Shown here piece by piece: positions 9,297 through 64,000 of a stretch of 64,000 bases of DNA. The notes beneath the pieces were generated by a model, which saw only the letters and a list, made by a program, of their open reading frames with translations, was not told the origin of the DNA and did no database searches. This stretch comes from an uncultured Candidatus Saccharibacteria bacterium. GTDB taxonomy: Bacteria > Patescibacteriota > Saccharimonadia > UBA4664 > CAZJNH01. Position numbers and translations under genes: made by a program. Each line of letters begins with the position of its first letter. The stretch's first letter is position 1. Location: the NCBI GenBank assembly GCA_964547425.1, contig CAZJNH010000005.1:17703-81702 (forward strand), given 5' to 3'.

Positions 9297-9330
9297 ATGT
9301 GTAATCAGCACTATAGCGAACAAACACCGA
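9297..9330 (-). promoter_or_regulatory. Sigma70-like promoter of recA (TTGACA-18-TATAGT)
   Basis: The minus strand reads cTTGACAtgttcggtgtttgttcgcTATAGTg about 30 nt upstream of the recA start. Confidence 0.5.
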
Positions 9331-9343
9331 ACATGTCAAGCCT

Positions 9344-10003
9344 TTAGAAAATCTGGTTTAATTCCTCGAGGTTTTCGATCTTAATAAACTCATTGTCGGT
9401 CGGATAGGCGCCGTGGTCGAACTGAATTAACTTGCTGAACCCGACCTTACTGGCTCCTTCCAGCGCCGAAGGCACGTCATCAATAAACGCCGATTCCTCA
9501 GCTGAAACTTTGGCCGCCTCCAAGGCTGCTTCGTAAATACCGGGCTGGGGTTTGTCGATGCTAATCTCCCGCGAAATAATTACCGGGTCGAAATACTCAA
9601 GCAACTTCAAATAAGTCAGCTCGCTGCCCCGCCGCGACGTCATGCCATTAGAAATAATTCCCAACTTGTATTTTTTCCGCAAATACGCCAGCGTCTCAAT
9701 CGCGCCGTCGTTTAGTCGGTAATCCTTTTTCATCCAGGCATCTGTCATAAAATCGACCCGTTCTTTAGTCGTCTCAATCCCTAGCTGCTTCAAAATCTTG
9801 GCGTTGTGCTTGTCGGCCCAATGCTTCTCTTTCTCCAGCGTCTCGATATCGTTCCAGCCTTCAAAACCGGTTTCCTCGGCTAGCCTATGGCCAGCTTTGT
9901 AGTCTTCATAGTCTAACCCTAGGTACGCCGCAATCTTGCGTCTTGGATCTTCGTTGAGAGTAATGAGAACATTGCCGACGTCGAAGAAAATGATTTTGAT
10001 CAC
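9344..10003 (-). CDS. HAD-superfamily hydrolase (subfamily IA-like)
   Basis: N-terminal FFDVGNVL (DxG-like motif) and C-terminal D-rich motif. Confidence 0.75.
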   Translation of the reverse strand: MIKIIFFDVGNVLITLNEDPRRKIAAYLGLDYEDYKAGHRLAEETGFEGWNDIETLEKEKHWADKHNAKILKQLGIETTKERVDFMTDAWMKKDYRLNDGAIETLAYLRKKYKLGIISNGMTSRRGSELTYLKLLEYFDPVIISREISIDKPQPGIYEAALEAAKVSAEESAFIDDVPSALEGASKVGFSKLIQFDHGAYPTDNEFIKIENLEELNQIF

Positions 10004-10462
10004 CTAAATCTCGCCTCGTTCCTGTAGCTCATTTTGAATTTCTTTGATGTTTCCGAGAAATTCCCTCCGCACCGCTAAATCCACGTCGTCGATATAAGGC
10101 GATGGATAACTGCGGCTCAAAAATTTTCCTCTGCGCTCGCTGGTCGACCAGGCATACGACGAGTACTCGCCAGTATCTTTTTCGGTGAAGAAAGCGAACC
10201 CACCAAAGAGAGGGTCAATCTCACCCCGAACAGTTAACTCAATTTTAGAATATTTGCCTACATCCTCGAGCTCTAAATGTTTAGTAGGATATGTGACCTC
10301 GTCCCCTTCAGAAGTGTGCGCTGTTTCTTCGGTCGTTTCGGTCTCAGGGTGCTTAAAAACGATGCTTCTTGCCGTACTGAAGCTTTCGTCGAACAACCTA
10401 TCCTTTTCAGCTTGTTCGGGATTACCGATCTCTTCTGGTGTTGTGCCACTGGTCTCGGACAT
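10004..10462 (-). CDS. Acidic protein of unknown function, RGEI-terminating paralog family member A
   Basis: 152-aa ORF. It shares TPEEIGNPEQAEKD, HPET and a C-terminal ...ELQERGEI* with ORFs 11473..11913 and 62937..63470. Confidence 0.65.
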   Translation of the reverse strand: MSETSGTTPEEIGNPEQAEKDRLFDESFSTARSIVFKHPETETTEETAHTSEGDEVTYPTKHLELEDVGKYSKIELTVRGEIDPLFGGFAFFTEKDTGEYSSYAWSTSERRGKFLSRSYPSPYIDDVDLAVRREFLGNIKEIQNELQERGEI

Positions 10463-10467
10463 AAGGA

Positions 10468-11430
10468 CTACTGTATCACCGTGTCCTTCGCGAAGTCGAG
10501 GTCGCGTTTGGTCTCCCCCTGTTTACCGAGAGGGTCGAGCGTTTTTTCGGCCACAACCTTATTAGTAATAATTAATGCCGTCGAACCTGCGTTGCCGGTG
10601 GTTACCTTGATGTCGTCTTTGCCGGTAAAGGCTTGCGTCGTGCCGGCCAGCATCGTCCCGCGAAACACCTCTTGGCCATCCACCTCCACCACAATCAGCG
10701 TCGCTTTGTCCTTAATCTTCACGCCAACTGCGATCCCATTAAACTTCTTGGCCGGAACCAGCTTTTCTTTGCCTGCCACCGGCGGCAAATGCGCCAGGAT
10801 GTTACGCGTCACAGTGGTGGATTTGCCCAGCTTGTTTTTGGCGGTAATTTGAATCGTGTTTAACCCGTCCGACAGCGCCAATTTGTCGCTGAACTTACCG
10901 TCGTTATCGGCCAAAATCGGCGAGTCGTTGATGAATATGTCGGTTCCCGGAGTCGCCTGCCCGCTGATGTCGACTACGCTGCCGGTAATCGCTTCGTCCG
11001 ACACCGGCGAGCTGATCTCCAGCCTCGGCGCAGCCGCCAAAGCCGAGAACTGCCAGGCCAAATAACTGCCAATCAGCGCCACAACCACCACCGTAGCCGC
11101 GGCCACTGCCAGCTTTGGTGTCAAAGAAACCCTCGAAGACTTCACCGGCTTCGGCGCCGACCGCTCCGGTGTTTCCACCTCGCCCCGCTCGTGGCTATAC
11201 TGCTTGGCCAGAGCCGGACCGTCTAATCCTAAATAGTTGGCGTAGGCTTGCACGAAGCCGCGAATGTAAACGTCGTTGGGAATTGAGTAATCATCCTCTT
11301 CCAACTTCGTCAGATACTTCCCACGAATCTTCGTCGCCAGTTCCACCTGCGACTGCCGCAGACCCTGCTTCTCCCGCTCCTTCCGCAGAACCTCCCCAAC
11401 CTTCTCCGACTTTTTCTCTTTAGGCGTCAT
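10468..11430 (-). CDS. rodZ: RodZ-like cytoskeletal protein (HTH_XRE N-terminus + TM helix + C-terminal DUF4115-like domain)
   Basis: N-terminal HTH (LRKEREKQGLRQSQVELATKI), a central TM segment (VAAATVVVVALIGSYLAW) and a C-terminal beta-rich domain. Confidence 0.7.
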   Translation of the reverse strand: MTPKEKKSEKVGEVLRKEREKQGLRQSQVELATKIRGKYLTKLEEDDYSIPNDVYIRGFVQAYANYLGLDGPALAKQYSHERGEVETPERSAPKPVKSSRVSLTPKLAVAAATVVVVALIGSYLAWQFSALAAAPRLEISSPVSDEAITGSVVDISGQATPGTDIFINDSPILADNDGKFSDKLALSDGLNTIQITAKNKLGKSTTVTRNILAHLPPVAGKEKLVPAKKFNGIAVGVKIKDKATLIVVEVDGQEVFRGTMLAGTTQAFTGKDDIKVTTGNAGSTALIITNKVVAEKTLDPLGKQGETKRDLDFAKDTVIQ

Positions 11431-11472
11431 AAGGTCAGGATACAGGGGCTAGGATCTAGGATCTAGCTATTC

Positions 11473-11913
11473 TTAGATCTCGCCTCGATCCTGAAGTTCG
11501 TTTTCTACCTGTGTGATTAATGCCTGCAACTCCCTCCGTTCGGATATGTCCGTATCCCTTTTGTAGTTTTGGAGGTCATTGTCTTCTAGGTAAGTGATTT
11601 TGCGGTCTTCACTCCAACCATAATCGCGCGCTGGCAGGTCTTCTTTGGGTTCAAAAAAGATAGCGTTAAGCTTCCCTTCGGAATGAGCCGTATGCGATTC
11701 GGTTTTACGAGCTAGTATGGCACGGCCATAGCCAGCGACGTCAAGCAATGTGACATGCCTCGCCTCAACACCATGAGAACTTTCAATTCTAGCTTGGGGA
11801 TGACTTAGAAGGATATTAGTTACCGTTCTCAATGTTGAATTATAAATTTTGTCTTTCTCGGCTTGTTCCGGGTCAGCAAGTTCTTCAGGTGTTGGTCCGG
11901 GACGTTCACGCAT
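11473..11913 (-). CDS. Acidic protein of unknown function, RGEI-terminating paralog family member B
   Basis: 146-aa ORF with the same N-terminal TPEELADPEQAEKD and C-terminal ...ELQDRGEI* motifs as member A. Confidence 0.65.
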   Translation of the reverse strand: MRERPGPTPEELADPEQAEKDKIYNSTLRTVTNILLSHPQARIESSHGVEARHVTLLDVAGYGRAILARKTESHTAHSEGKLNAIFFEPKEDLPARDYGWSEDRKITYLEDNDLQNYKRDTDISERRELQALITQVENELQDRGEI

Positions 11914-11918
11914 TATTT

Positions 11919-14027
11919 TTATTCCTCGATAGTAATATCTTCAACGCTCGCGGCTTCGTCGACGGAGCTGACTAGAACATCGCGGGGGCGGGCGCCGTCG
12001 GGCGGGCCTATTACTCCTCGTTCTTCGAGGATGTCGAGCAATCTGGCGGCACGGGCGTAGCCAACTCGTAATCGGCGTTGGAGTAGCGATGCCGAGGCCT
12101 TGCCGCTGCGAATAACCGTGTCGGCCGCTTCCTGGAACAAATCATCATCTCCGCTTGAGCCATCAAAATCGTGGCCGCGGCCTCCGGCACCCATATGCAC
12201 CGGCTGTGTCAGCACCTCTTCGTTGTAACTCGGCTCCCGTTCCTTTTTAAGGTATTCAGTGACGGCCTTGATCTCTTTTTCGCTGATGAAAGTACTTTGA
12301 ATCCGTTTCGGCTTAGGAGTCTCGGACGACATATATAGCATGTCACCACTGCCCAGCAGCTTCTCGGCGCCACCTTGGTCAATGATCACCCGCGAGTCGA
12401 CTTGCTGGGCCACCGTAAACGCCAATCGGGCCGGCACGTTGGCTTTAATGAGTCCGGTAATGACGTTCACACTCGGTCTCTGAGTCGCCAGTACCAGGTG
12501 AATCCCGGTCGCGCGCGACATCTGCGCCAGCCGGACGATTGCTGACTCCACTTCCTGCGAAGCGACGTGCATCAGGTCCGCCAGCTCGTCGATTACGACT
12601 ACGATATAGGGCATACCCTCATCCTTTTTGGCGGAGTTGTACTCTCCGATATTGCGTTTACCAACCTCGGCAAACAGCTTGTACCGGCGCTCCATCTCCA
12701 TCACCGTCCACTTCAGCGCCGAGATACATTCCTTGGGTTCAACGATCACCGGCGACAGCAAGTGCGGGATGTTGTTGTACATCGTCAGCTCCACCCGCTT
12801 AGGGTCAACCAGGATAAGCTTTAGATCCGAAGGCGAGTTGCGGTAAAGCAAACTCATCAGGAAAGTATTGATCATAATCGACTTACCGGAACCCGTGGCA
12901 CCGGCGATCAGCATATGAGGCATTTTGGCGAGGTCCGCGATCATCGGCTCTCCCGAAACGTCACGGCCGAGAACGAAAGTCAGCGGCGACTTTGAGGCCT
13001 TAAACTGATTCGAGCCTACCAGGTCCCGCATCCGCACCAAGGCCGGCTTTTTGTTGGGGATCTCAATGCCAACCGCGCTTTTGCCCGGAATCGGCGCCTC
13101 AATCCGCAGTGGATGCGCCGCTAGCGCCAGGCTCAAGTTGTGGTCGAGTTGCGTTATTTTGTTCAATTTTACGCCGCTCTCCGGCTTGATCGTATATTGA
13201 GTAACTGTTGGACCCACGTTGACTTCGCCGAGGCCAACTTCGATGCCGAAACTCTCCAAAGTTTTGTGGATAGTCGCGGCGTTTTCCTTGATATTACCAG
13301 CGTCCGGCTGGGTGGTAGTTTCTTCGAGTAAATCAAGCCCTGGCCCCTTCCAGTCTGGGTCGGCGCCGGCGGTCAGCGGCTCAAACTCTTGCTGCGCCGG
13401 AGGCTTCCCGCCCAGCGTTCCACGGATCGGTAATTTGGTTGAAAGTACGGCGCTCGCGGGGTCATTAATGGCAAACTCGTCCTCGTTCCCGCGCCGAAAT
13501 AATTTCATTATCAGATGCCAAACGTCGCTTAATTTGGTGTTAGTGGCGACGATGAAGCTGATGAGTAAAACCGCGATCAGCAGAATGATCGAAGCGGTCT
13601 TGTTCGCCAGCCTGAGCAAGCCAAGACTAACCAGGTAGCCAATGACTCCGCCGCCAACGCCGTCTTTGGCGTGCTGCAGGGCGTTGTCGGAGTACGGCAG
13701 ATGCATTAGACCGGCTAGAGCCACAACGATCAGGAAAAGTCCGATGTAGTTGTTGGCCCGCATCTGGTATTTCTTTGGCTGAAAGAGCAGCCACGCCAGC
13801 AGGAAAAACAGCAGCGGCAGAACGTATGCGACCCAGCCAACCAGTATCCTCAACCCCGTTAATGTCCAAGATAACAGCGAACCGCCGACCCCAAACATTG
13901 CCAGAATCAAAAGGAATGCGAGCGCCACAAGGACAATCGCTGTAATCTCGGCAACTAGTTCGGGATCCAGCTGCGGCCTAAGGCTGGGCAAATCCCTTTT
14001 TTGCTTGCGTTTCTTCCGTCGCGCCAT
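11919..14027 (-). CDS. ftsK: DNA translocase FtsK
   Basis: N-terminal TM helices, Walker A GATGSGKS, and C-terminal gamma/wHTH domain. Confidence 0.9.
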   Translation of the reverse strand: MARRKKRKQKRDLPSLRPQLDPELVAEITAIVLVALAFLLILAMFGVGGSLLSWTLTGLRILVGWVAYVLPLLFFLLAWLLFQPKKYQMRANNYIGLFLIVVALAGLMHLPYSDNALQHAKDGVGGGVIGYLVSLGLLRLANKTASIILLIAVLLISFIVATNTKLSDVWHLIMKLFRRGNEDEFAINDPASAVLSTKLPIRGTLGGKPPAQQEFEPLTAGADPDWKGPGLDLLEETTTQPDAGNIKENAATIHKTLESFGIEVGLGEVNVGPTVTQYTIKPESGVKLNKITQLDHNLSLALAAHPLRIEAPIPGKSAVGIEIPNKKPALVRMRDLVGSNQFKASKSPLTFVLGRDVSGEPMIADLAKMPHMLIAGATGSGKSIMINTFLMSLLYRNSPSDLKLILVDPKRVELTMYNNIPHLLSPVIVEPKECISALKWTVMEMERRYKLFAEVGKRNIGEYNSAKKDEGMPYIVVVIDELADLMHVASQEVESAIVRLAQMSRATGIHLVLATQRPSVNVITGLIKANVPARLAFTVAQQVDSRVIIDQGGAEKLLGSGDMLYMSSETPKPKRIQSTFISEKEIKAVTEYLKKEREPSYNEEVLTQPVHMGAGGRGHDFDGSSGDDDLFQEAADTVIRSGKASASLLQRRLRVGYARAARLLDILEERGVIGPPDGARPRDVLVSSVDEAASVEDITIEE

Positions 14028-14066: not shown

Positions 14067-14981
14067 CTAATGTGCCAGGACAATCGTGCCAAGAATAATT
14101 ATCGCGGCGGCCAGGACCTTGCGAGTAAGATGTTGGCGGGAGATATTTTCCTTGATGATATGAGGAAAAAAGATGGTAAGTATTGCGCCGAACCCAATTA
14201 GATAAATCGCTTGGACACTCATTACCGCCTGCACGATCGCCACCGGCACCAGCAACATGGCATAGCGCATGGCCGCAAGGCCGCTCAAGTTCAGCAGCTC
14301 GTTGGCCTCGCCCAGGCTTAGGGCTACGACTTTATGCTTTGACAGTAGATCCAAAAATCCCCGCCGAGCAGACCGGCTAAGGCAAAAGACCGTAATCGAA
14401 GCGATCAAACCAGCCGAAAATTCGTAGAACTGCGTGGGCACATACGACGATTCAACTGCTACGAACTTAAAGACAATGTTACTGAAGGCAATTGCAAGCG
14501 AAGCGACAGCCATCAACCAAAACACCCGGCGGTTAAACGTGGTCTTGCCGGAGGTTTTATCGAGGTTGATTGAGATGGAGCCTAGTAGAATCAGCCCTAT
14601 CCCCGCCAGTTCGAGTAACGATAAGGACTCATGCAAAAAAATTAGCCCCAGGACGTAGTTCGCCACAATGATCATCTGGAATAGTGTTGCCACGACCGAC
14701 GTTTCAGCGACCTTCAACGCCCGGTAATAGACATAAAAGGCGGCGGTTGTGAGTAGCCCGACCAATATGCCTCCGAGCGCGTTGCGTAAGCTGTAATGGG
14801 CTAGTTGATGGCGCGCGAACCAGCCAAAAACAATTAAAAGCGGGGTAACACAAAGGCCGGTCAAGATAGTTACCGGACCAGCAGAGTCTCCTTCCGCGAT
14901 GCGCGACAACAAATACTTCTCGATGAAGTTTGTCGACGCAAACAGTAGCGGCGCGATTAAGGCTAAAGCAAACCACAGCAT
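14067..14981 (-). CDS. DMT-superfamily (EamA-like) transporter
   Basis: About 10 TM helices. ORF 14067..15293 was trimmed to the MLWFALALIAPLLF start, because the upstream extension has no membrane or coding character. Confidence 0.7.
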   Translation of the reverse strand: MLWFALALIAPLLFASTNFIEKYLLSRIAEGDSAGPVTILTGLCVTPLLIVFGWFARHQLAHYSLRNALGGILVGLLTTAAFYVYYRALKVAETSVVATLFQMIIVANYVLGLIFLHESLSLLELAGIGLILLGSISINLDKTSGKTTFNRRVFWLMAVASLAIAFSNIVFKFVAVESSYVPTQFYEFSAGLIASITVFCLSRSARRGFLDLLSKHKVVALSLGEANELLNLSGLAAMRYAMLLVPVAIVQAVMSVQAIYLIGFGAILTIFFPHIIKENISRQHLTRKVLAAAIIILGTIVLAH

Positions 14982-15054
14982 GCTTCCAATTCTAAGCCAA
15001 AACGCTATACTTATCCGCACGTTCGATCCGGAAGGACTTTGACAAGCGAGGAGG

Positions 15055-15138
15055 GTTAGATGCGTCTGTTCATTCACCGGCTGGTCAACGCACCAGAGCC
15101 GCCAAGAGGGATCTTCGACGAAGACAGCCAGAGTCCCG
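15055..15138 (+). CDS. Possible 27-codon leader ORF (MRLFIHRLVNAPEPPRGIFDEDSQSPE)
   Basis: A GAGGAGG RBS lies 5 nt upstream of the ATG. The ORF is too short for the ORF track. Speculative. Confidence 0.25.
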
Positions 15139-15152
15139 AATAGGAGGAAATA

Positions 15153-15356
15153 GTGGCAAAGGCGTGTGCGGAGCAATGCTGTCCCGGGAAGAGAATCTTC
15201 TCGACTCATGACGAGGCCCAGCGGCACATCGGCCGAGTCCGAATGCAGATGGGATGGCGGCTGAGGGTTTACAAGTGCCCGAAGTGCAAGCATTTACACG
15301 TGAGCAGTTCGGAATCCAGAGGGAGGAATAAAGCCGGGACAAGGAGAAAACGATGA
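15153..15356 (+). CDS. Small zinc-ribbon protein (Cys cluster CAEQCC...CPKCKH), function unknown
   Basis: GTG start 5 nt after an AGGAGG RBS; 67 aa, basic, with a C-x3-CC...C-P-x-C-x-H motif. Confidence 0.55.
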   Translation: MAKACAEQCCPGKRIFSTHDEAQRHIGRVRMQMGWRLRVYKCPKCKHLHVSSSESRGRNKAGTRRKR

Positions 15357-22325: not shown

Positions 22326-22562
22326 ATGCATTGGCAGGACATTGTATTGGCAGCTGGATCGTTCGTTTTTGCCGTGGCCTTAATTCCTACAGTATTAAGC
22401 AAAGAGAAGCCGCCACTATCGACCAGCCTGCTGACCGGCATAACCTTGCTGGTATTTGCGGTCGTCTACGCCACTCTCTCATTATGGCTATCCTTCTTCA
22501 GCACCTGTATAACGGCCGCGCTTTGGCTGACGATCGCGGCTCAAAGACTGATTAAAGTCTGA
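22326..22562 (+). CDS. Small integral membrane protein (2-3 TM helices), function unknown
   Basis: ORF 22302..22562 trimmed to MHWQDIVLAAGSFVFAVALIP.... The hydrophobic segments support coding. The 3' end overlaps truB by about 22 nt. Confidence 0.4.
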   Translation: MHWQDIVLAAGSFVFAVALIPTVLSKEKPPLSTSLLTGITLLVFAVVYATLSLWLSFFSTCITAALWLTIAAQRLIKV

Positions 22563-23203
22563 TTTATTTGTTCGGCGGAGGTATCGAGATCAACCGCATC
22601 CACGAGCTTAAAGTCACCGATTTCGGCTCGAGCGAGTTTCGATAAATATGCGCCTGCGCCGAGTTTTTGGCCAATATCTTGCGCTAAAGATCGTATGTAA
22701 GTGCCGCTTGAAACCTTGGCGGTAAAAGTGATCAGCGGATAGCGGTAATCGTTTAGTTTGGTGCTATGAATAGTTACTTTTCTCGAAGGGATTTCAACTT
22801 CTTGGCCTTTGCGGGCCAGTTTATAGGCCCGCTGGCCACCGACTTTGATGGCCGAAAATTGGGGCGGAGTTTGGTCTTGTTGACCAACAAATGAGTTCAA
22901 TACGGTTTCGACTTTTTTGGCCGTCGGGACATCATTATTTATTTTGTTCAATTCGCCCTCGGCATCGCCGGTAGTGGACTCAAAACCTAACGTCAGTTCG
23001 GCCTCATAAACTTTATCGAGTATGGAATAATTGCTGGCGGCCTTCGTCGCTGACCCGAATAACATTATCATCAAACCGGTCGCGAGAGGATCCAATGTCC
23101 CCGCATGCCCTATCTTCTTGAACCCGGTGATACGCCGAAGCTTGCGGATCACATCAAAAGACGAGATCCCCTTGGGCTTATTCACCAGTAGAATTCCATT
23201 CAT
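22541..23203 (-). CDS. truB: tRNA pseudouridine(55) synthase TruB
   Basis: GHAGTLDPLATG catalytic motif. Confidence 0.85.
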   Translation of the reverse strand: MNGILLVNKPKGISSFDVIRKLRRITGFKKIGHAGTLDPLATGLMIMLFGSATKAASNYSILDKVYEAELTLGFESTTGDAEGELNKINNDVPTAKKVETVLNSFVGQQDQTPPQFSAIKVGGQRAYKLARKGQEVEIPSRKVTIHSTKLNDYRYPLITFTAKVSSGTYIRSLAQDIGQKLGAGAYLSKLARAEIGDFKLVDAVDLDTSAEQINQTLISL

Positions 23204-32275: not shown

Positions 32276-32811
32276 TTCAACTTATCCAAAACGGCCGGGG
32301 CGAGTTCGGGGAAGTCTTTGTCCATGAAATGATTTCGATTGGCGAATTCGTGATAGTCGGTGTTCAACTTTTTGTGCACGAATCGTGATTCTTCCGCCGG
32401 AATGAATTCGTCGTCGGTCGAAGCAAACTGGATAATCCATTTTTGGTTAGCTTTGATTTTGTTCCATTGCCAGGGTTTATCGAAATAACCACTCTCTTTT
32501 TCGTCTTCGTAACCTAAATCAGTGTGGTAGGTGCCGATTAAGACCGAACCAAGAAGTTTGTGATCTTCGGCGTAACGCATGACCGCGATCGCACCCGACG
32601 AATGGCCAATGATTATCGTATTTTCGTCGGCCTTAAGTTCATTTTCGATGTATGGCAGCCAGAATTTTGCGCGAGCTTTAACGTTGTCCGGCATCGTTCC
32701 CGCCCAAACCTCAACCCCGGCTTTCTCCAGCTCCGTCTTAACCCCCGGGATCCAAATATCATTCCCCGTCGCCCCACCATTCCCGTGGATGATAATCACA
32801 CGCGGCTTCAT
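32272..32811 (-). CDS. Alpha/beta hydrolase, YdeN/RBBP9-like (second copy)
   Basis: IIHGNGG...GHSSG motif. It is a paralog of the gene at 31242..31778. Confidence 0.65.
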   Translation of the reverse strand: MKPRVIIIHGNGGATGNDIWIPGVKTELEKAGVEVWAGTMPDNVKARAKFWLPYIENELKADENTIIIGHSSGAIAVMRYAEDHKLLGSVLIGTYHTDLGYEDEKESGYFDKPWQWNKIKANQKWIIQFASTDDEFIPAEESRFVHKKLNTDYHEFANRNHFMDKDFPELAPAVLDKLK

Positions 32812-33470
32812 TGGAGTTCCTGGTATTCTTTAACACCTTTGACTAAATCACCAAACCCCGAAACTATGTGCGTTGGCCCGTAAGCCTTCAGTTTATCGAA
32901 GTCGTAAAATATCTCGTGCTGTTTAGGAAAAACCAAAATACTGTCTACGCCCGCATTCTTCGCTGCTTCGATATCCTTTGCCGAATCGCCGATCATCACC
33001 GCCTGCGCTTTTTCACCTCCTAATTCTTTGAGTGCCTTTTCTATGACCTCGGGATGGGGCTTGTGGCTAGTGACGTCATCGGCGGTCAAAATAACTTCAA
33101 AGTATGACCGAACCCCTGTGTTATCGAGTGGTTTTTTGATGTCTTGTGGTCTGGAACTAGTCAGCAAAGCAAGTTTTTTACCAGCCGCCTTAAGCTCTTC
33201 CAGCAATTGCTTGGCTCCCTCGTATAAGTGAACATGAGGGAGTTTTTCTTCTACAATTCGGTCCATTAGATCCATACAGGAAGTATAATCGGCTTCACTA
33301 ACTCCAAGATTCTTAGGACCGTTCCAGTTGCCGAATTGGTTAGCGATCTCTTTGTCGGTAGCATGAACGCCGAACTTTGCCATCGACTGCCGATAAGCTT
33401 CCAGCCAAATCTCAAGAGTGTTGGCGAGGCAGCCGTCCCAATCGAACAAGAAATAATCGTAGTTTTTCAC
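32808..33470 (-). CDS. HAD-IA phosphatase (beta-phosphoglucomutase-like)
   Basis: FDWDGCL, ...SSR...K... and GDSAKDIEAAKNAG motifs. Confidence 0.75.
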   Translation of the reverse strand: MKNYDYFLFDWDGCLANTLEIWLEAYRQSMAKFGVHATDKEIANQFGNWNGPKNLGVSEADYTSCMDLMDRIVEEKLPHVHLYEGAKQLLEELKAAGKKLALLTSSRPQDIKKPLDNTGVRSYFEVILTADDVTSHKPHPEVIEKALKELGGEKAQAVMIGDSAKDIEAAKNAGVDSILVFPKQHEIFYDFDKLKAYGPTHIVSGFGDLVKGVKEYQELQ

Positions 33471-33504: not shown

Positions 33505-34431
33505 TCAATTGAGTACCCCCGACTTATTTATGCTGTAGGTCCGGACGTGCGATTCGCCGAGCTCCGCGCTGCCATCCTCCTTCAGGATCCTGGTATGAGT
33601 TTCAAAACTGACTGGCTCGCCCGTCATTAGCAAGGAATGGGCTTCATCATCAAGGCTATAAAACGCTGGGCCAAACTGCCTTTTTCCGTCATGGCTTTGA
33701 TACACGACCGGATTAGTGACATCGAGCAAAATATGCACACCTTGCTTAGGCTCTAGAACCTGGAACGAATGCATTTCTTGAGTTTTTTGCCCTTGCGATT
33801 CGGTCTCTAGTTTACCCGCTACAAGTGTAGACTTAATGCCAGCGAATTTAAGTAAATTGTGCGTTACGGCAGCCCGTTCGGTACAGGCTGCAACGGCTTT
33901 GCCGGTCTCCTCAGCTTTATCGGCGAACTCTTTAATAGACATAACTCGCTCGGACTCAGTTCCATCTTCGTTGGGTTGAAGTACGCCAGCATCCATGATC
34001 ATCCGTTGCCTCTCAGACGAAGAACCAAAGCCCTTGAAGTAGACGGCTTGGCCATAAAATGCTTCTCGGATGGCCATATTAAAATAACCGGTCGGATCAT
34101 TCTCTGTCTGTGGCAACTTTTCAAAGTTGCGGTACTGCTTAATCCTGTCGACAAAGATTTTATAAGGCTGCTCATCGTCTAACTTATAGCTTCCTCCCAT
34201 CATCAAGTTGGGCGTGATTTCAGTCTCCGGGTGAATAAACTCAGCGTACGGTTTAGACATAGCATCGAGGTGTGTTTTGACACTCTTTTCATTCAGTTCG
34301 CTTAAGCGCTTATCAATAAATTCATCGTAGTTGATTGATTCAATGTTTGCTTGTTTATCGACGATCGCCGCCAATTCAGCCGGGTATTTTGGCTGCTCAG
34401 TCTCCGCGTTAAAGCCCTGGGTTTCGCTCAT
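33505..34431 (-). CDS. Hypothetical protein (308 aa) inserted between polA and the HAD gene
   Basis: Its ATGA start overlaps the polA stop. It is flanked by the 30-bp direct repeats R1 and R2. Confidence 0.6.
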   Translation of the reverse strand: MSETQGFNAETEQPKYPAELAAIVDKQANIESINYDEFIDKRLSELNEKSVKTHLDAMSKPYAEFIHPETEITPNLMMGGSYKLDDEQPYKIFVDRIKQYRNFEKLPQTENDPTGYFNMAIREAFYGQAVYFKGFGSSSERQRMIMDAGVLQPNEDGTESERVMSIKEFADKAEETGKAVAACTERAAVTHNLLKFAGIKSTLVAGKLETESQGQKTQEMHSFQVLEPKQGVHILLDVTNPVVYQSHDGKRQFGPAFYSLDDEAHSLLMTGEPVSFETHTRILKEDGSAELGESHVRTYSINKSGVLN

Positions 34432-52137: not shown

Positions 52138-52473
52138 TTACATTCCGGGGACGTCTTGGAGCTCGTAAACGTCGACACAGAACTTGCCGGTTTTGTCGGA
52201 GAGAAACGGGTGGCCATCAACTAGCTTGACCGCCGCGGCCATGTCTGCGGCCTGGATGATTGAGTAGCCATTCAGCTGCGGGACTTCGCCTTTTGAACCG
52301 TCATCCTTCACACATTCGCCGTTACGGTCCATTGGCTGGCCCATATCGACCATCGCGCTACCTAGCTTGTCCATCCACACACTCCAGTGGCCCATAATTT
52401 CTTTGGCCTTTTCCGGATCCATATCTTTGGCTTCGGTCGCCGGGCCATTGTAAAGCAATATAAACTTTTTCAT
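52138..52473 (-). CDS. YciI/DGPF-like small protein
   Basis: 111 aa with the alpha+beta barrel-like pattern. Tentative. Confidence 0.4.
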   Translation of the reverse strand: MKKFILLYNGPATEAKDMDPEKAKEIMGHWSVWMDKLGSAMVDMGQPMDRNGECVKDDGSKGEVPQLNGYSIIQAADMAAAVKLVDGHPFLSDKTGKFCVDVYELQDVPGM

Positions 52474-52542
52474 TCGAGCCTCCTTTACTTAGGTGCCGAT
52501 TCTACACCCGGTGATCAACTAAATCTACGTTACAATTGCCAC

Positions 52543-53310
52543 ATGCCAAGAAAGAAAATCGTACTGGCCCCTCCTCGAATGTTCGACCCAACAGGACCGG
52601 ACATCACGTTAGTTCAGGAGGTTGGTAGCCGACTGCCGGCTTCGGTTAATCCTTACGTCATCGGTGGGGCTGCTCGAAACGCGCTATATTACCAAACCTT
52701 CGGCAAGGGCTTAGCCCAGCGAGATTTCGACCTGCTAGCTTTACCAGGGGACGCCACCAAGTTTGTTGATTTCTGCCGAAGAGAGCTTGGTTTCGTATAC
52801 GGTAAAATTCGTCGAAAGTCGGAAGTCGTAGTCCGTAAAAATTTCGTTGAGAAGCCTCAAAACATCACCCATTACGTATACTTTGACCTTCATATTAGCG
52901 AAGAAGCCGATGTTTTGACCAACCTACGCCTAAACTCTGCTTTCACAATTAACGGCTTCGCCATCCCGCTCAAAAGTTTTCCCAAGCTCGACAAGTTAAT
53001 CTCCTTGCCCGGAGCCGTCGACGATTTGAAGAATCGGCAACTGCGGTTAAACCCAGATGGCTATAAATTCCACCCCGGAAACTTGTTTGCCTGCTTGAGG
53101 TTCATGTCGGTCGGTTATAAACCACCGAGTGCCGAAGAGGTGGAACTTCTGGCTAAAGAACTGCCAAAGCTCGAGAAGTGGCGCTTCAATCGCAACGTCA
53201 AAAAAGTCTTTACCTACGTTGGCGGTGAAGCAAATGCCCGCAAGCTGGCCAAACGGCTGGGTGTCGAGGCAGACATATTTAATTTGGATGAGCTTCGCAA
53301 ATCGATATGA
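52543..53310 (+). CDS. Nucleotidyltransferase (poly(A) polymerase/CCA-adding enzyme head-domain-like)
   Basis: VIGGAARNALY...DFDL resembles the GGxVRD...DxD motif of class II nucleotidyltransferases. Start trimmed to MPRKKIVL. Confidence 0.5.
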   Translation: MPRKKIVLAPPRMFDPTGPDITLVQEVGSRLPASVNPYVIGGAARNALYYQTFGKGLAQRDFDLLALPGDATKFVDFCRRELGFVYGKIRRKSEVVVRKNFVEKPQNITHYVYFDLHISEEADVLTNLRLNSAFTINGFAIPLKSFPKLDKLISLPGAVDDLKNRQLRLNPDGYKFHPGNLFACLRFMSVGYKPPSAEEVELLAKELPKLEKWRFNRNVKKVFTYVGGEANARKLAKRLGVEADIFNLDELRKSI

Positions 53311-62126: not shown

Positions 62127-62921
62127 ATGACAAAACGTGTCTTAATGTGCGCCCCCACGTACTTCGGGATCGAATACTCGATCAATCCCTGGATGGATGA
62201 GAGTAATCAGGTTAACCGGGAAAAAGCGCAACAGCAGTGGGACAAGCTGGTCAAGATCTATAAGCAGCTCGGTTTTAAAGTTGAGTTGGTTGATCCAGTC
62301 GAGCACTTGCCAGATATGGTTTTCACCGCCAACGGCGGGTTGGTGATCGGTGGGAAGGTTATGCTGGCACGCTTTAAATACCCGGAACGGCAAGGGGAGA
62401 GCGTGCACTTTAAGCGCTGGTTCAACCACCATGGTTTCCAGCGGATCTATGTTCCCCGTCACGACTTCGAGGGCGAAGGCGATTGTTTGTACAGCGGTGA
62501 GACGGTGTTTGCCGGCTCCGGCTTCCGCACCAGCGTCTATGCCCACCCCGAGGTAGAGAAGGTTTTCGGCAAAAAAGTGGTTCGGCTAAAGCTGGTTGAT
62601 TCCCGGTTCTACCACCTCGATACTTGCTTCGCGCCGCTGGATGATAAGACGATCATGTTCTACCCCGGCGCGTTCGACAAAGCCAGCCAAGAACTCATCA
62701 AAGAGAACTGTGAAACCTTCATCGAGGCCGACGAGGAATCAGCAGAAGCCTTCGGCCTCAACGCCGTCTCCAACGGCAAGCAAGTCGTCCTCGGAGCTGG
62801 CGCCAAGGGTTTAATCAAAACTCTCGAGAAAAAAGGCTTCGAACCAATCCCCGTCGACTTAAGTGAATTCAAAAAGTCCGGTGGCGGCGCCAAATGCCTT
62901 ACTCTAGAATTAAGAAGTTAG
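62127..62921 (+). CDS. Amidinotransferase-superfamily hydrolase (DDAH/arginine-deiminase-like) with C-terminal catalytic Cys
   Basis: 264 aa with conserved His/Asp positions and ...GGGAKCLTLEL near the C-terminus. Confidence 0.65.
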   Translation: MTKRVLMCAPTYFGIEYSINPWMDESNQVNREKAQQQWDKLVKIYKQLGFKVELVDPVEHLPDMVFTANGGLVIGGKVMLARFKYPERQGESVHFKRWFNHHGFQRIYVPRHDFEGEGDCLYSGETVFAGSGFRTSVYAHPEVEKVFGKKVVRLKLVDSRFYHLDTCFAPLDDKTIMFYPGAFDKASQELIKENCETFIEADEESAEAFGLNAVSNGKQVVLGAGAKGLIKTLEKKGFEPIPVDLSEFKKSGGGAKCLTLELRS

Positions 62922-62936
62922 AATTAGGAATCAAGG

Positions 62937-63470
62937 ATGTCAGAATTTAGCGGCGAAAGTCCGTCACCCGAAGAACAACAAAACCCCGAGCAAGCGGAGG
63001 CAACTCGTATCGGCGAGCTTGCCTTTCGGGAAATGGCCAACATTATTCTGGCTCATCCAGACACTCAAGAAATAACGGAGCCTCAGCACCCTTTAATAGA
63101 TAATCGGGTACCAGATGCTCCAGAGTTAATAGATGGTCCAACTGAGGTTAAGGTCAAGCGTCTAGAGCTAAGTGACATTGCAGGAAATGCAAAAGTTGTG
63201 CTGACGCTACGCGGGGAGCAAGAGCGAAGGGGAGGCATAAACTTTGTTCGTCCCGAATATAATCGCCAAGTAACCTACACGTGGACGACAAAGAGAAACC
63301 CTTATAACAATGTACCCCGCGGAGATATGTATAAAGTGATTGGTCAGTTGGACCCGCCGAACGAACCGCCACTAACCCGGCCCCTCGAGGTTGATAAAGA
63401 CCAGCGCGAAGATTTATTAGCAGACATTGTCTCAATCTCGGCCGAACTCAAACGCAGGGGCGAGATTTAG
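62937..63470 (+). CDS. Acidic protein of unknown function, RGEI-terminating paralog family member C
   Basis: 177 aa with SPEEQQNPEQAEA..., HPDTQE and ...SISAELKRRGEI*. It shares motifs with members A and B. Confidence 0.6.
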   Translation: MSEFSGESPSPEEQQNPEQAEATRIGELAFREMANIILAHPDTQEITEPQHPLIDNRVPDAPELIDGPTEVKVKRLELSDIAGNAKVVLTLRGEQERRGGINFVRPEYNRQVTYTWTTKRNPYNNVPRGDMYKVIGQLDPPNEPPLTRPLEVDKDQREDLLADIVSISAELKRRGEI

Positions 63471-64000
63471 CGTTTTTTGAGGGCTCTCTTGGCCTCGGCG
63501 ATTTCGTCCCAGGGGCGTTTGCCGCTGGGTCCGAGGATAGACTTTTCGTGGCCTTTACCGAGGAGTAGAACCGTATCGCCTTTTTGGGCGTTCATAATCG
63601 CGGCCTCGATCGCTTCCCGGCGATCGTGAATCAGGTATAAATTAATATCGCGTTTCTTTCCCGCCAGCTCCGCTCCGACGGCGATCTCTTCCATAATCTG
63701 CTGGCCATCAATATCCCGATCGTCCTCCTCGGTGATGATAACGACGTCGGCCATTTTGCCGGCCACCTCGCCTTGCAATGGCCGCTTCGCCTCGTCGCGC
63801 CGGCCGGCGGAGCCAAACACTACGATCATCTGGCCGGTGGTTAGCGGCCGCATCTCTTTAAGGATCTTCTCAAAAGATTGCGGTGTGTGAGCGTAGTCAA
63901 CAATGACCGTGAAATCCTGGCCTTCATCAACGGTGTTCATCCGACCCTCCACCGATTCAACCGCCGCGATCCCCTTTTCGATCTGCTTTTCGGTCAAATC
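63467..64000 (-). CDS. Mur ligase family protein, C-terminal part (MurE-like; gene continues beyond right edge)
   Basis: Mur ligase C-terminal domain motifs (TVIVDYAHTPQSF, VVFGSAGRRD). The ORF reaches the window edge. Confidence 0.65.
   Translation of the reverse strand, partial: DLTEKQIEKGIAAVESVEGRMNTVDEGQDFTVIVDYAHTPQSFEKILKEMRPLTTGQMIVVFGSAGRRDEAKRPLQGEVAGKMADVVIITEEDDRDIDGQQIMEEIAVGAELAGKKRDINLYLIHDRREAIEAAIMNAQKGDTVLLLGKGHEKSILGPSGKRPWDEIAEAKRALKKR

Follow-up and report, generated by a model that had tools for sequence, protein, structure and literature searches.

A stretch of 64,000 nucleotides (nt) from an uncultured Candidatus Saccharibacteria bacterium (contig CAZJNH010000005.1, positions 17,703 to 81,702 of the forward strand), hereafter the window, contains three open reading frames (ORFs), denoted A, B and C, for small acidic proteins that share motifs at both ends (Table 1). 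A and B bracket a rodZ-like gene downstream of ftsK, and C lies between the genes for a dimethylargininase (DDAH) and MurE. The lengths, positions and strands given for these ORFs in a first-pass annotation proved correct, as did its description of common start and end motifs, which we confirmed by reading the sequences and by a six-frame scan. The N-terminal motif reads TPEEIGNPEQAEKD in A, TPEELADPEQAEKD in B and SPEEQQNPEQAEAT in C, with the shared pattern M-x-E-x-x-G-x-[ST]-P-E-E-x-x-[ND]-P-E-Q-A-E. At the other end, ELQERGEI, ELQDRGEI and ELKRRGEI, respectively, are each followed directly by the stop codon, the pattern being E-L-[QK]-x-R-G-E-I-stop. In the six-frame translation of the window, both "RGEI-stop" and "PE[ED]..[NDH]PE" are confined to A, B and C. 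In the ∼716 kb of loci fetched for comparison, frames open for at least 50 codons and ending in RGE[ILVM]-stop belong to family members only. An internal HP(E/Q/D)T had been noted as well; the His-Pro (HP) turn is indeed present in all three proteins (HPET in A, HPQA in B, HPDT in C; H-P-[EQD]-[TA]), while its threonine is not invariant, as seen in B.

Full-length pairwise blastp yields E=3e-24 for A and B (33% identity), E=2e-17 for A and C (33%), and E=2e-10 for B and C (26%). These values are far beyond chance, and hence the three are real paralogues. No fourth copy was found by tblastn over the whole window. The N-terminal segment of B is 74% identical in DNA to that of A over 43 nt. The motif codons of the paralogues differ synonymously (CCA/CCT/CCC, GAA/GAG, GCT/GCC/GCG), so the selection acts at the protein level, and recent gene conversion is ruled out as the source of the conserved termini. 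Spurious ORFs were likewise rejected, given the conservation across genomes, the confident fold predictions, and the tight fit between flanking genes. Judged by these comparisons, A, B and C are real, translated paralogous genes under protein-level selection.

To see how far the family extends, we consider six proteins: A, B, C, P0004 (163 aa), P0005 (154 aa), and L010:256-765 (169 aa). An exhaustive search with a hidden Markov model (HMM) among 1.84 billion cluster representatives matched five proteins, namely A, B, C, P0004 and P0005, the last two both coming from metagenome assemblies; word-indexed searches with three- and five-sequence profiles returned the same five clusters and nothing further. 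The sixth member, L010:256-765, was detected through synteny alone. Our working definition of the family comprises the N-terminal M-x-E-x-x-G-x-[ST]-P-E-[ED], the HP turn at about residue 38, an exact C-terminal R-G-E-I, a length of 146–177 amino acids (aa), and a net negative charge, and all six proteins have these features. Invariant in all six are M1, E3, G6, P9, E10, E16, H38, P39, E81, Y103, L146, R149, G150, E151, and I152. All six end exactly at the terminal Ile, none extending beyond it. The shared motifs, whose loss in a wider alignment would have refuted the first-pass annotation by its own terms, persist with three homologues from other organisms in the alignment. Identity among members is 32–69% up to the HP turn, 19–52% over the last 27 residues, and 12–29% in the middle. 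Together with the blastp and codon comparisons, this supports, for the termini and the HP turn, the earlier proposal of paralogy at low overall identity with selection on particular motifs.

Public gene calls shorten the N-terminus of these proteins: B is recorded with 91 aa and A with 130 aa, its start having been placed at codon 23. The L010 member is left with 141 aa and, so shortened, obtains E = 2.8e3 when the three-sequence profile is run at the size of the library. As such calls cut off the conserved N-terminus, the family is under-counted in database searches. Even allowing for that, it is rare and narrowly distributed, being found so far in a few Saccharimonadia (Saccharibacteria/TM7, candidate phyla radiation, CPR).

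The statement that the family is not a recognized one also stands. Neither Pfam nor NCBIfam has a family matching A, B or C at E<=1, and no Pfam family matches the L010 member at E<=0.1. PHROGs gave only single-member matches at E>=0.026, PADLOC defence-system models gave no match, and an hmmsearch of PDB sequences with the family profile gave a sole match, 4epc_A, with E=0.18 over 33 residues. No match to the family was found in phage and plasmid records (tblastn) or in viral contigs. The GTDB species-representative genomes scanned by tblastn contain nothing related to the family or to the window RodZ, and hence this lineage is not covered by those representatives. Homologues of the window RodZ bear names such as Candidatus Saccharimonadales and Saccharimonadia bacterium, in keeping with a saccharibacterial origin of the window. 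A metagenome scan with a protein pattern found no member, and a DNA-pattern scan for the N-terminal motif returned at least 120 loci, with no true member among the matches listed. A full-text literature search on orphan families of Saccharibacteria yielded nothing usable. The family is thus unassigned, in sequence and in fold, by every library queried; its novelty is one of absent annotation and not of a demonstrated new mechanism.

All six members are hydrophilic (grand average of hydropathy from -0.5 to -0.95) and acidic, with isoelectric points (pI) of 4.5–5.1 and net charges of -9 to -18, with no hydrophobic stretch in any of them that might serve as a signal peptide or membrane segment. 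AlphaFold2 models of A and B were built from the five-sequence alignment. Model A has a mean predicted local distance difference test (pLDDT) score of 82.6 and a predicted template modelling (pTM) score of 0.75, with helix 15–37, seven strands, and helix 129–149; model B (pLDDT 77, pTM 0.72) has the same topology. In both, poorly ordered residues 1–8 precede a short and a long helix (9–37) ending at the invariant His-Pro, after which come seven antiparallel strands and a long C-terminal helix stopping 3–4 residues before the end. In model A, the pLDDT is 47 for residues 1–10 and 77 for residues 11–20. The members are accordingly predicted to be small soluble acidic alpha/beta proteins with a helix, a seven-strand antiparallel sheet, and a second helix. 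In the alignment, residues 9–21 are polar and Pro-rich and come before helix 1 turns amphipathic, its hydrophobic, presumably sheet-packing repeat starting only at about residue 24. Since these residues lie ahead of the core-packing part of helix 1 and the pLDDT of residues 1–10 is low, the hydrophobic core does not explain their conservation.

Foldseek found no match at E <= 1e-3 in PDB (models A and B) or BFVD (model A). The best matches of model B were PebS, Bet v 1/PYL, p32/gC1qR, and frataxin, all with E >= 0.15, so that the fold searches suggest only a topological resemblance to two-layer helix-sheet-helix sandwiches. Similar to the members, frataxin/CyaY (PF01491) is small and acidic, and its antiparallel sheet follows an N-terminal helix and precedes a C-terminal one packed on one face. 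Model B has several frataxin chains among its weak matches (E 0.28–0.9, TM score ∼0.2), and model A has none in its top 50. On the other hand, there is no Pfam match, the members have seven strands and longer helices, and no iron-sulfur cluster genes are nearby. The p32/gC1qR/Mam33 proteins (PF02330) are very acidic and also have an N-terminal helix, seven consecutive antiparallel strands, and a C-terminal helix; they gave the best TM score of any match (TMq 0.36, model B), at a non-significant E of 0.25, and are outside the top 50 for model A. Unlike the members, p32 is ∼200 aa long and trimeric and lacks conserved terminal motifs, and again there is no Pfam match.

These weak resemblances to acidic binders bear on the possibility that the proteins are acidic mimics of, or chaperones for, basic or nucleic-acid-binding proteins, e.g., DNA-mimic regulators of FtsK, RecA or SSB-type proteins, or p32/Mam33-like factors. 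Each of the six members has indeed kept its negative charge while the sequence changed, and the window is rich in DNA-handling genes (ftsK, recA, recX, ssb). Still, the fold matches are non-significant (E >= 0.25, TM 0.2–0.36) and not common to both models, the neighborhood of DNA genes is not conserved, and, as about 20% of the window ORFs have pI <5.2, acidity alone says little. We give this explanation scarcely any probability.

Two further known systems were compared. Class I type III secretion chaperones and YbjN-like proteins are small (15–20 kDa), acidic, alpha/beta, poorly conserved, and encoded tightly beside another gene, and the members are like them in all these respects. The differences are that there is no Pfam match, none of these proteins is among the top 50 Foldseek matches, the chaperones have no invariant terminal motifs, and the neighbors of the members are varied housekeeping enzymes, not effectors. 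Tags of the Pup/UBact type are ∼60–70 aa long, intrinsically disordered, and end in Gly-Gly-Gln/Glu; the members do not fit this description, having 146–177 aa, a confidently predicted fold, the ending R-G-E-I, and no match to Pfam Pup.

The genes evolve differently from their surroundings. Between the window and its relatives, identity is 79% for DDAH, 80% for the HAD hydrolase, 74% for RodZ, and 69% for the C-terminal part of MurE, while members in corresponding positions are 23–34% identical. The G+C content at third codon positions (GC3) is 0.41 in B, 0.46 in C, and 0.50 in A, against a window mean of 0.614 (standard deviation 0.07), these being the first, third, and fifth lowest values of 69 ORFs. 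GC3 of P0004 is 0.43, compared to 0.59–0.62 in its neighbors, and P0005 and the L010 member have the same pattern in a weaker form. Other ORFs of below-average GC3 (0.49–0.53) are a second HAD hydrolase (32808–33470, minus strand), a weak transglutaminase-like protein (33505–34431, minus), a 307-aa ORF without a Pfam match (52387–53310, plus), and TruB (22541–23203, minus). Hence low GC3 in the window is not exclusive to accessory genes, A, B and C still being among the lowest. We found no direct or inverted repeats flanking A, B or C and no flanking mobility genes; insertion of a mobile element was rejected because of this lack of repeats and of any phage or plasmid match. The genes are accessory: at a given intergenic slot, one close relative has the gene and another lacks it or has a different one instead, and the members diverge far faster than their neighbors.

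Table 1. Family members, their conserved ends, and neighboring genes in the window
Feature	Position	Strand	Remarks
Member A	10004..10462	-	152 aa, pI 4.5, net charge -16
Member B	11473..11913	-	146 aa, pI 5.1, net charge -9
Member C	62937..63470	+	177 aa, pI 4.8, net charge -10
A, conserved Pro/Glu-rich N-terminal peptide	10400..10462	-	codons 1-21, MSETSGTTPEEIGNPEQAEKD
B, same segment	11851..11913	-	codons 1-21, MRERPGPTPEELADPEQAEKD
C, same segment	62937..63005	+	codons 1-23, MSEFSGESPSPEEQQNPEQAEAT, two-residue insertion
A, R-G-E-I-stop	10004..10018	-	
B, R-G-E-I-stop	11473..11487	-	
C, R-G-E-I-stop	63456..63470	+	
HAD-IA hydrolase	9344..10003	-	directly downstream of A
RodZ-like protein	10468..11430	-	HTH_25, transmembrane segment, Ig-like Glucodextran_B domain, RodZ_C
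FtsK	11919..14027	-	702 aa, upstream of B; N- and C-terminal stretches as in L009 orthologue
DDAH, M. tuberculosis type	62127..62921	+	directly upstream of C; NCBIfam DDAH, 352 bits, cutoff 300
murE, 3' part	63467..63997	-	gene runs off the window; 410 bits, cutoff 257

The flanking genes, previously called RodZ-like, FtsK, Mur ligase, and amidinotransferase, are borne out as RodZ, FtsK, MurE, and DDAH. On the minus strand, the order is ftsK, B, rodZ, A, the HAD-IA gene, recA, and recX. The ATG of B is 5 nt past the ftsK stop, and 42 nt separate B from rodZ; A begins with an ATG 5 nt past the stop of rodZ and ends with a TAG immediately before the GTG that starts the HAD-IA gene, which is followed by a 74-nt spacer and recA. 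C starts 15 nt past the DDAH stop and is convergent with murE, their stops overlapping by 4 nt. Over the six members, the spacing to the upstream gene is 5, 5, 15, -8, 4, and 9 nt. Such spacing of a few nucleotides after whichever gene precedes would fit translational coupling. Within the string from ftsK to the HAD gene, no promoter-like site was seen.

The first-pass annotation pointed out that all three positions are in envelope or division neighborhoods. If these positions are meaningful, the proteins would be accessory factors binding RodZ, which is a partner of the actin homologue MreB, or FtsK, or the machinery for wall precursors, and would be co-expressed with them. The arrangement in the window, with B and A each 5 nt after ftsK and rodZ and no internal promoter-like site, is in line with that, as is a member at or near the 3' end of murE in three genomes, and so are the weak matches of model A to CapZ alpha (PF01267), its top Foldseek match (E 2e-3, prob 0.75), which similarly has a long C-terminal helix across a sheet. 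However, the CapZ matches have a TM score of 0.21 and a root-mean-square deviation of ∼15 Å and are not repeated with model B, whose top 50 contain no CapZ chain; there is no sequence match, and CapZ is a 270-aa subunit of a heterodimer.

Comparison with relatives also speaks against a division role. We compared eight rodZ loci (the window, L009, L010, L011, L013, L015, L137, and L138), the RodZ proteins of the seven other loci being 57–76% identical to that of the window, and judged the absence of members by a six-frame HMM screen of the sequenced flanks. Six of the eight loci (L009, L011, L013, L015, L137, and L138) have no member, and a check for co-occurrence with rodZ/ftsK, which had been proposed earlier, found a member at or near rodZ only in the window and in L010. 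The order in L010 is HAD', member, HAD-IA, rodZ, recA, so that the member is upstream of HAD and one gene away from rodZ. In the member-free relatives, the genes ftsK, rodZ, recA, and recX keep their order, and the slot between ftsK and recA is variable: depending on the relative, it contains YajQ, DUF72, small membrane ORFs, a Gln-rich ORF of 209 aa, or a nucleotidyltransferase-like one of 201 aa. YajQ (PF04461) occupies the slot of A in L011, L013, and L138 and is of similar size (165 aa). A is not a divergent YajQ (hhalign probability 0.4%); moreover, YajQ is 70–77% identical among those relatives, while the family members are 23–39% identical.

The same holds at murE. In L136, the closest relative found (DDAH 94.6% and MurE 84% identical to those of the window), the slot between DDAH and murE is only 146 nt long and contains no family member; DNA homology between L136 and the window ends at position 62911 and resumes at 63491. 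This slot in L136 has a 48-codon hydrophobic ORF (L136:1591-1737, minus strand), on the other strand. Given the six rodZ loci and L136, the division and envelope neighborhood belongs to this genome and not to the family, and the association read into it is not upheld. In addition, the gene near murE is convergent with it and not co-transcribed, and a core division factor would not fall to 23–34% identity while RodZ holds 74%. We therefore regard a role in division or the envelope as distinctly unlikely.

Two pairings do recur, each in two genomes: a member followed by HAD-IA, and DDAH followed by a member. The former is found in the window and L010, with abutting or overlapping stop and start codons, and the HAD gene is missing from the ftsK-to-recA interval wherever the member is missing. 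The latter is found in the window and in L003/L004, with P0004 overlapping DDAH by 8 nt and convergent with murE. P0005 is also near murE, but is preceded by a gene for a small EamA/SMR-like membrane protein. The pairings could mean that the proteins bind small molecules or are catalytic and work with the adjacent enzyme, HAD-IA for the A type and DDAH for the C type, with H38, E81, Y103, and R149 forming the site. Invariant polar residues do occur outside the termini, and both models have weak, non-significant fold matches to ligand-binding proteins of the Bet v 1/PYL/ZhuI type. On the other hand, the partner genes vary (FtsK, RodZ, HAD, DDAH, the EamA/SMR-like protein), L136 has DDAH without a member, the region of E81 and Y103 is poorly aligned (12–29% identity), and no enzyme family is matched. 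An enzyme-linked function of this kind seems quite improbable.

That this is a real, lineage-restricted, fast-evolving family with selection on the N-terminal peptide, the HP turn, and R-G-E-I is secure. As to its function, docking or degradation signals, as first suggested for the termini, may be their most economical reading. We tentatively favor, at somewhat less than even probability, the view that A, B and C are accessory acidic proteins with a binding function, which use their conserved ends to dock onto a partner common to all three. They would be non-enzymatic, soluble binding or adaptor proteins. The conserved parts, that is, the flexible Pro/Glu-rich peptide 1–21, the HP turn ending helix 1, and the C-terminal helix with R-G-E-I and its free carboxylate, would serve as putative docking elements for a single conserved partner, and the variable, persistently negative sheet body would give each paralogue its own client or specificity or be under diversifying pressure. 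Adjacency to rodZ, ftsK, and murE would reflect insertion of small genes in a compact genome, not a role in division or the wall. The docking mechanism taken by itself is possible but doubtful.

Several points weigh against this adaptor model. R-G-E-I could be a helix-capping or packing element, with Gly ending the helix and Ile folding back, and part of the N-terminal conservation falls inside a predicted helix; hence the termini may be conserved for folding and not for docking. The invariance of H38, E81, Y103, and R149 might just as well reflect ligand binding or catalysis, and the two enzyme pairings hint at enzyme-linked roles that an adaptor leaves unexplained. Besides, at 12–29% identity the middle region cannot be aligned with certainty.

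The first of these points can be taken further: the termini might be conserved only to build the fold of a rapidly drifting, possibly dispensable protein that has no specific docking. Both conserved regions coincide in part with the two predicted helices, close relatives can do without the genes, and the low GC3 would agree with weak selection or a low level of expression. Yet the most conserved stretch, residues 1–21, is polar and rich in Pro and lies mostly outside the portion of helix 1 that is packed, the pLDDT being low over residues 1–10. Neither the strict stop after Ile in all six members nor the strict Met-x-Glu start is needed for packing, and three intact paralogues kept in one small genome argue for a function. 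We consider purely structural termini unlikely.

Saccharibacteria are epibionts, and accessory, fast-evolving genes with presence or absence in close relatives, a body of near-random identity, and atypical codon usage would be expected there to have host-interaction or conflict functions. The members could be translocated effectors, immunity or anti-defence proteins, with the N-terminal peptide and the Glu-rich C-terminal tail (E-L-Q-E-R-G-E-I) as a bipartite signal read by an export or translocation machine and the body diversifying in an arms race. The fast-evolving body between fixed termini, the presence/absence polymorphism, the several paralogues per genome, the atypically low GC3, and the narrow lineage restriction all fit this, as does a pilin gene of a type IV secretion system called near the same region in L011. 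The N-terminal peptide may also occur on an unrelated, membrane-type body in two metagenome loci, L052 and L039. By contrast, no member has a signal peptide or membrane segment, the genes are wedged in housekeeping strings and not in islands, and the absence of PADLOC, PHROGs, phage, plasmid, and viral matches, of flanking repeats, and of mobility genes also argues against conflict proteins. Furthermore, the L052 similarity is only one identity above background, and the search pattern forces half of the match. On balance, a conflict or host-interaction role seems rather improbable.

The ORFs in question, L052:604-1113 (plus strand) and L039:298-804 (minus strand), are homologous, 168–169 aa long, and have at their start MGEIPGPSPEEQGFPE, a sequence similar to the N-terminus of the family. 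The body that comes after it is another one and includes hydrophobic segments, and both ORFs are preceded by a gene for a 68-aa XRE-type HTH protein. The hhalign probability is 86% over residues 1–45; however, the pattern by which these ORFs were found forces eight of 16 residues, and they exceed the best background matches by only one identity. The name of the L052 contig bears "Hain" groundwater and a 0.1 µm size-fraction label. Possible reuse of the N-terminal peptide in these ORFs would fit a portable tag. On such a reading, the termini would form a previously unknown bipartite recognition tag in Saccharibacteria, delivering diversifying acidic cargo to one machine, e.g., a translocation or secretion apparatus serving the epibiotic lifestyle, or a dedicated protease or chaperone. 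This is very unlikely on present evidence; if it were true, the family would be effectors or cargo of a new class, and their targeting signal would be new as well.

For now, the family adds one to the many lineage-restricted hypothetical ones of CPR genomes, and it is under-counted and mis-annotated because public gene calls systematically cut its N-terminus. The pattern of conserved ends and a free middle is unusually clean and so far has no functional anchor. Its anatomy lends itself to tests: the short motif at either end is invariant and can be used as a peptide bait, and the small fold that carries the two motifs is predicted with confidence. Should the termini prove to be signals for targeting or docking, their partner would offer a new way into the cell biology of Saccharibacteria; should they be no more than structural, the finding would be an ordinary one.

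Other observations concern the neighboring genes. The Glucodextran_B domain of the window RodZ lies between the membrane segment and RodZ_C, and the same architecture is recorded for most RodZ homologues of Saccharimonadia. For FtsK, the Pfam domains FtsK_4TM, alpha, SpoIIIE, and gamma are on record for the L009 and L011 orthologues. A heptamer, CTAGATC, is repeated ∼2.6 times at positions 11449–11466, within the spacer between B and rodZ. The EamA-type transporter ORF at 14067–15293 (minus strand) has an extension of ∼100 codons ahead of the first EamA repeat, and its listed start codon is probably too far upstream. Between recX and this gene, the sole strong promoter-like site is in front of recA, where the 74-nt spacer contains an 11/12 match to the sigma-70 consensus (TTGACA, 18-nt spacer, TATAGT; 9310–9339, minus strand).

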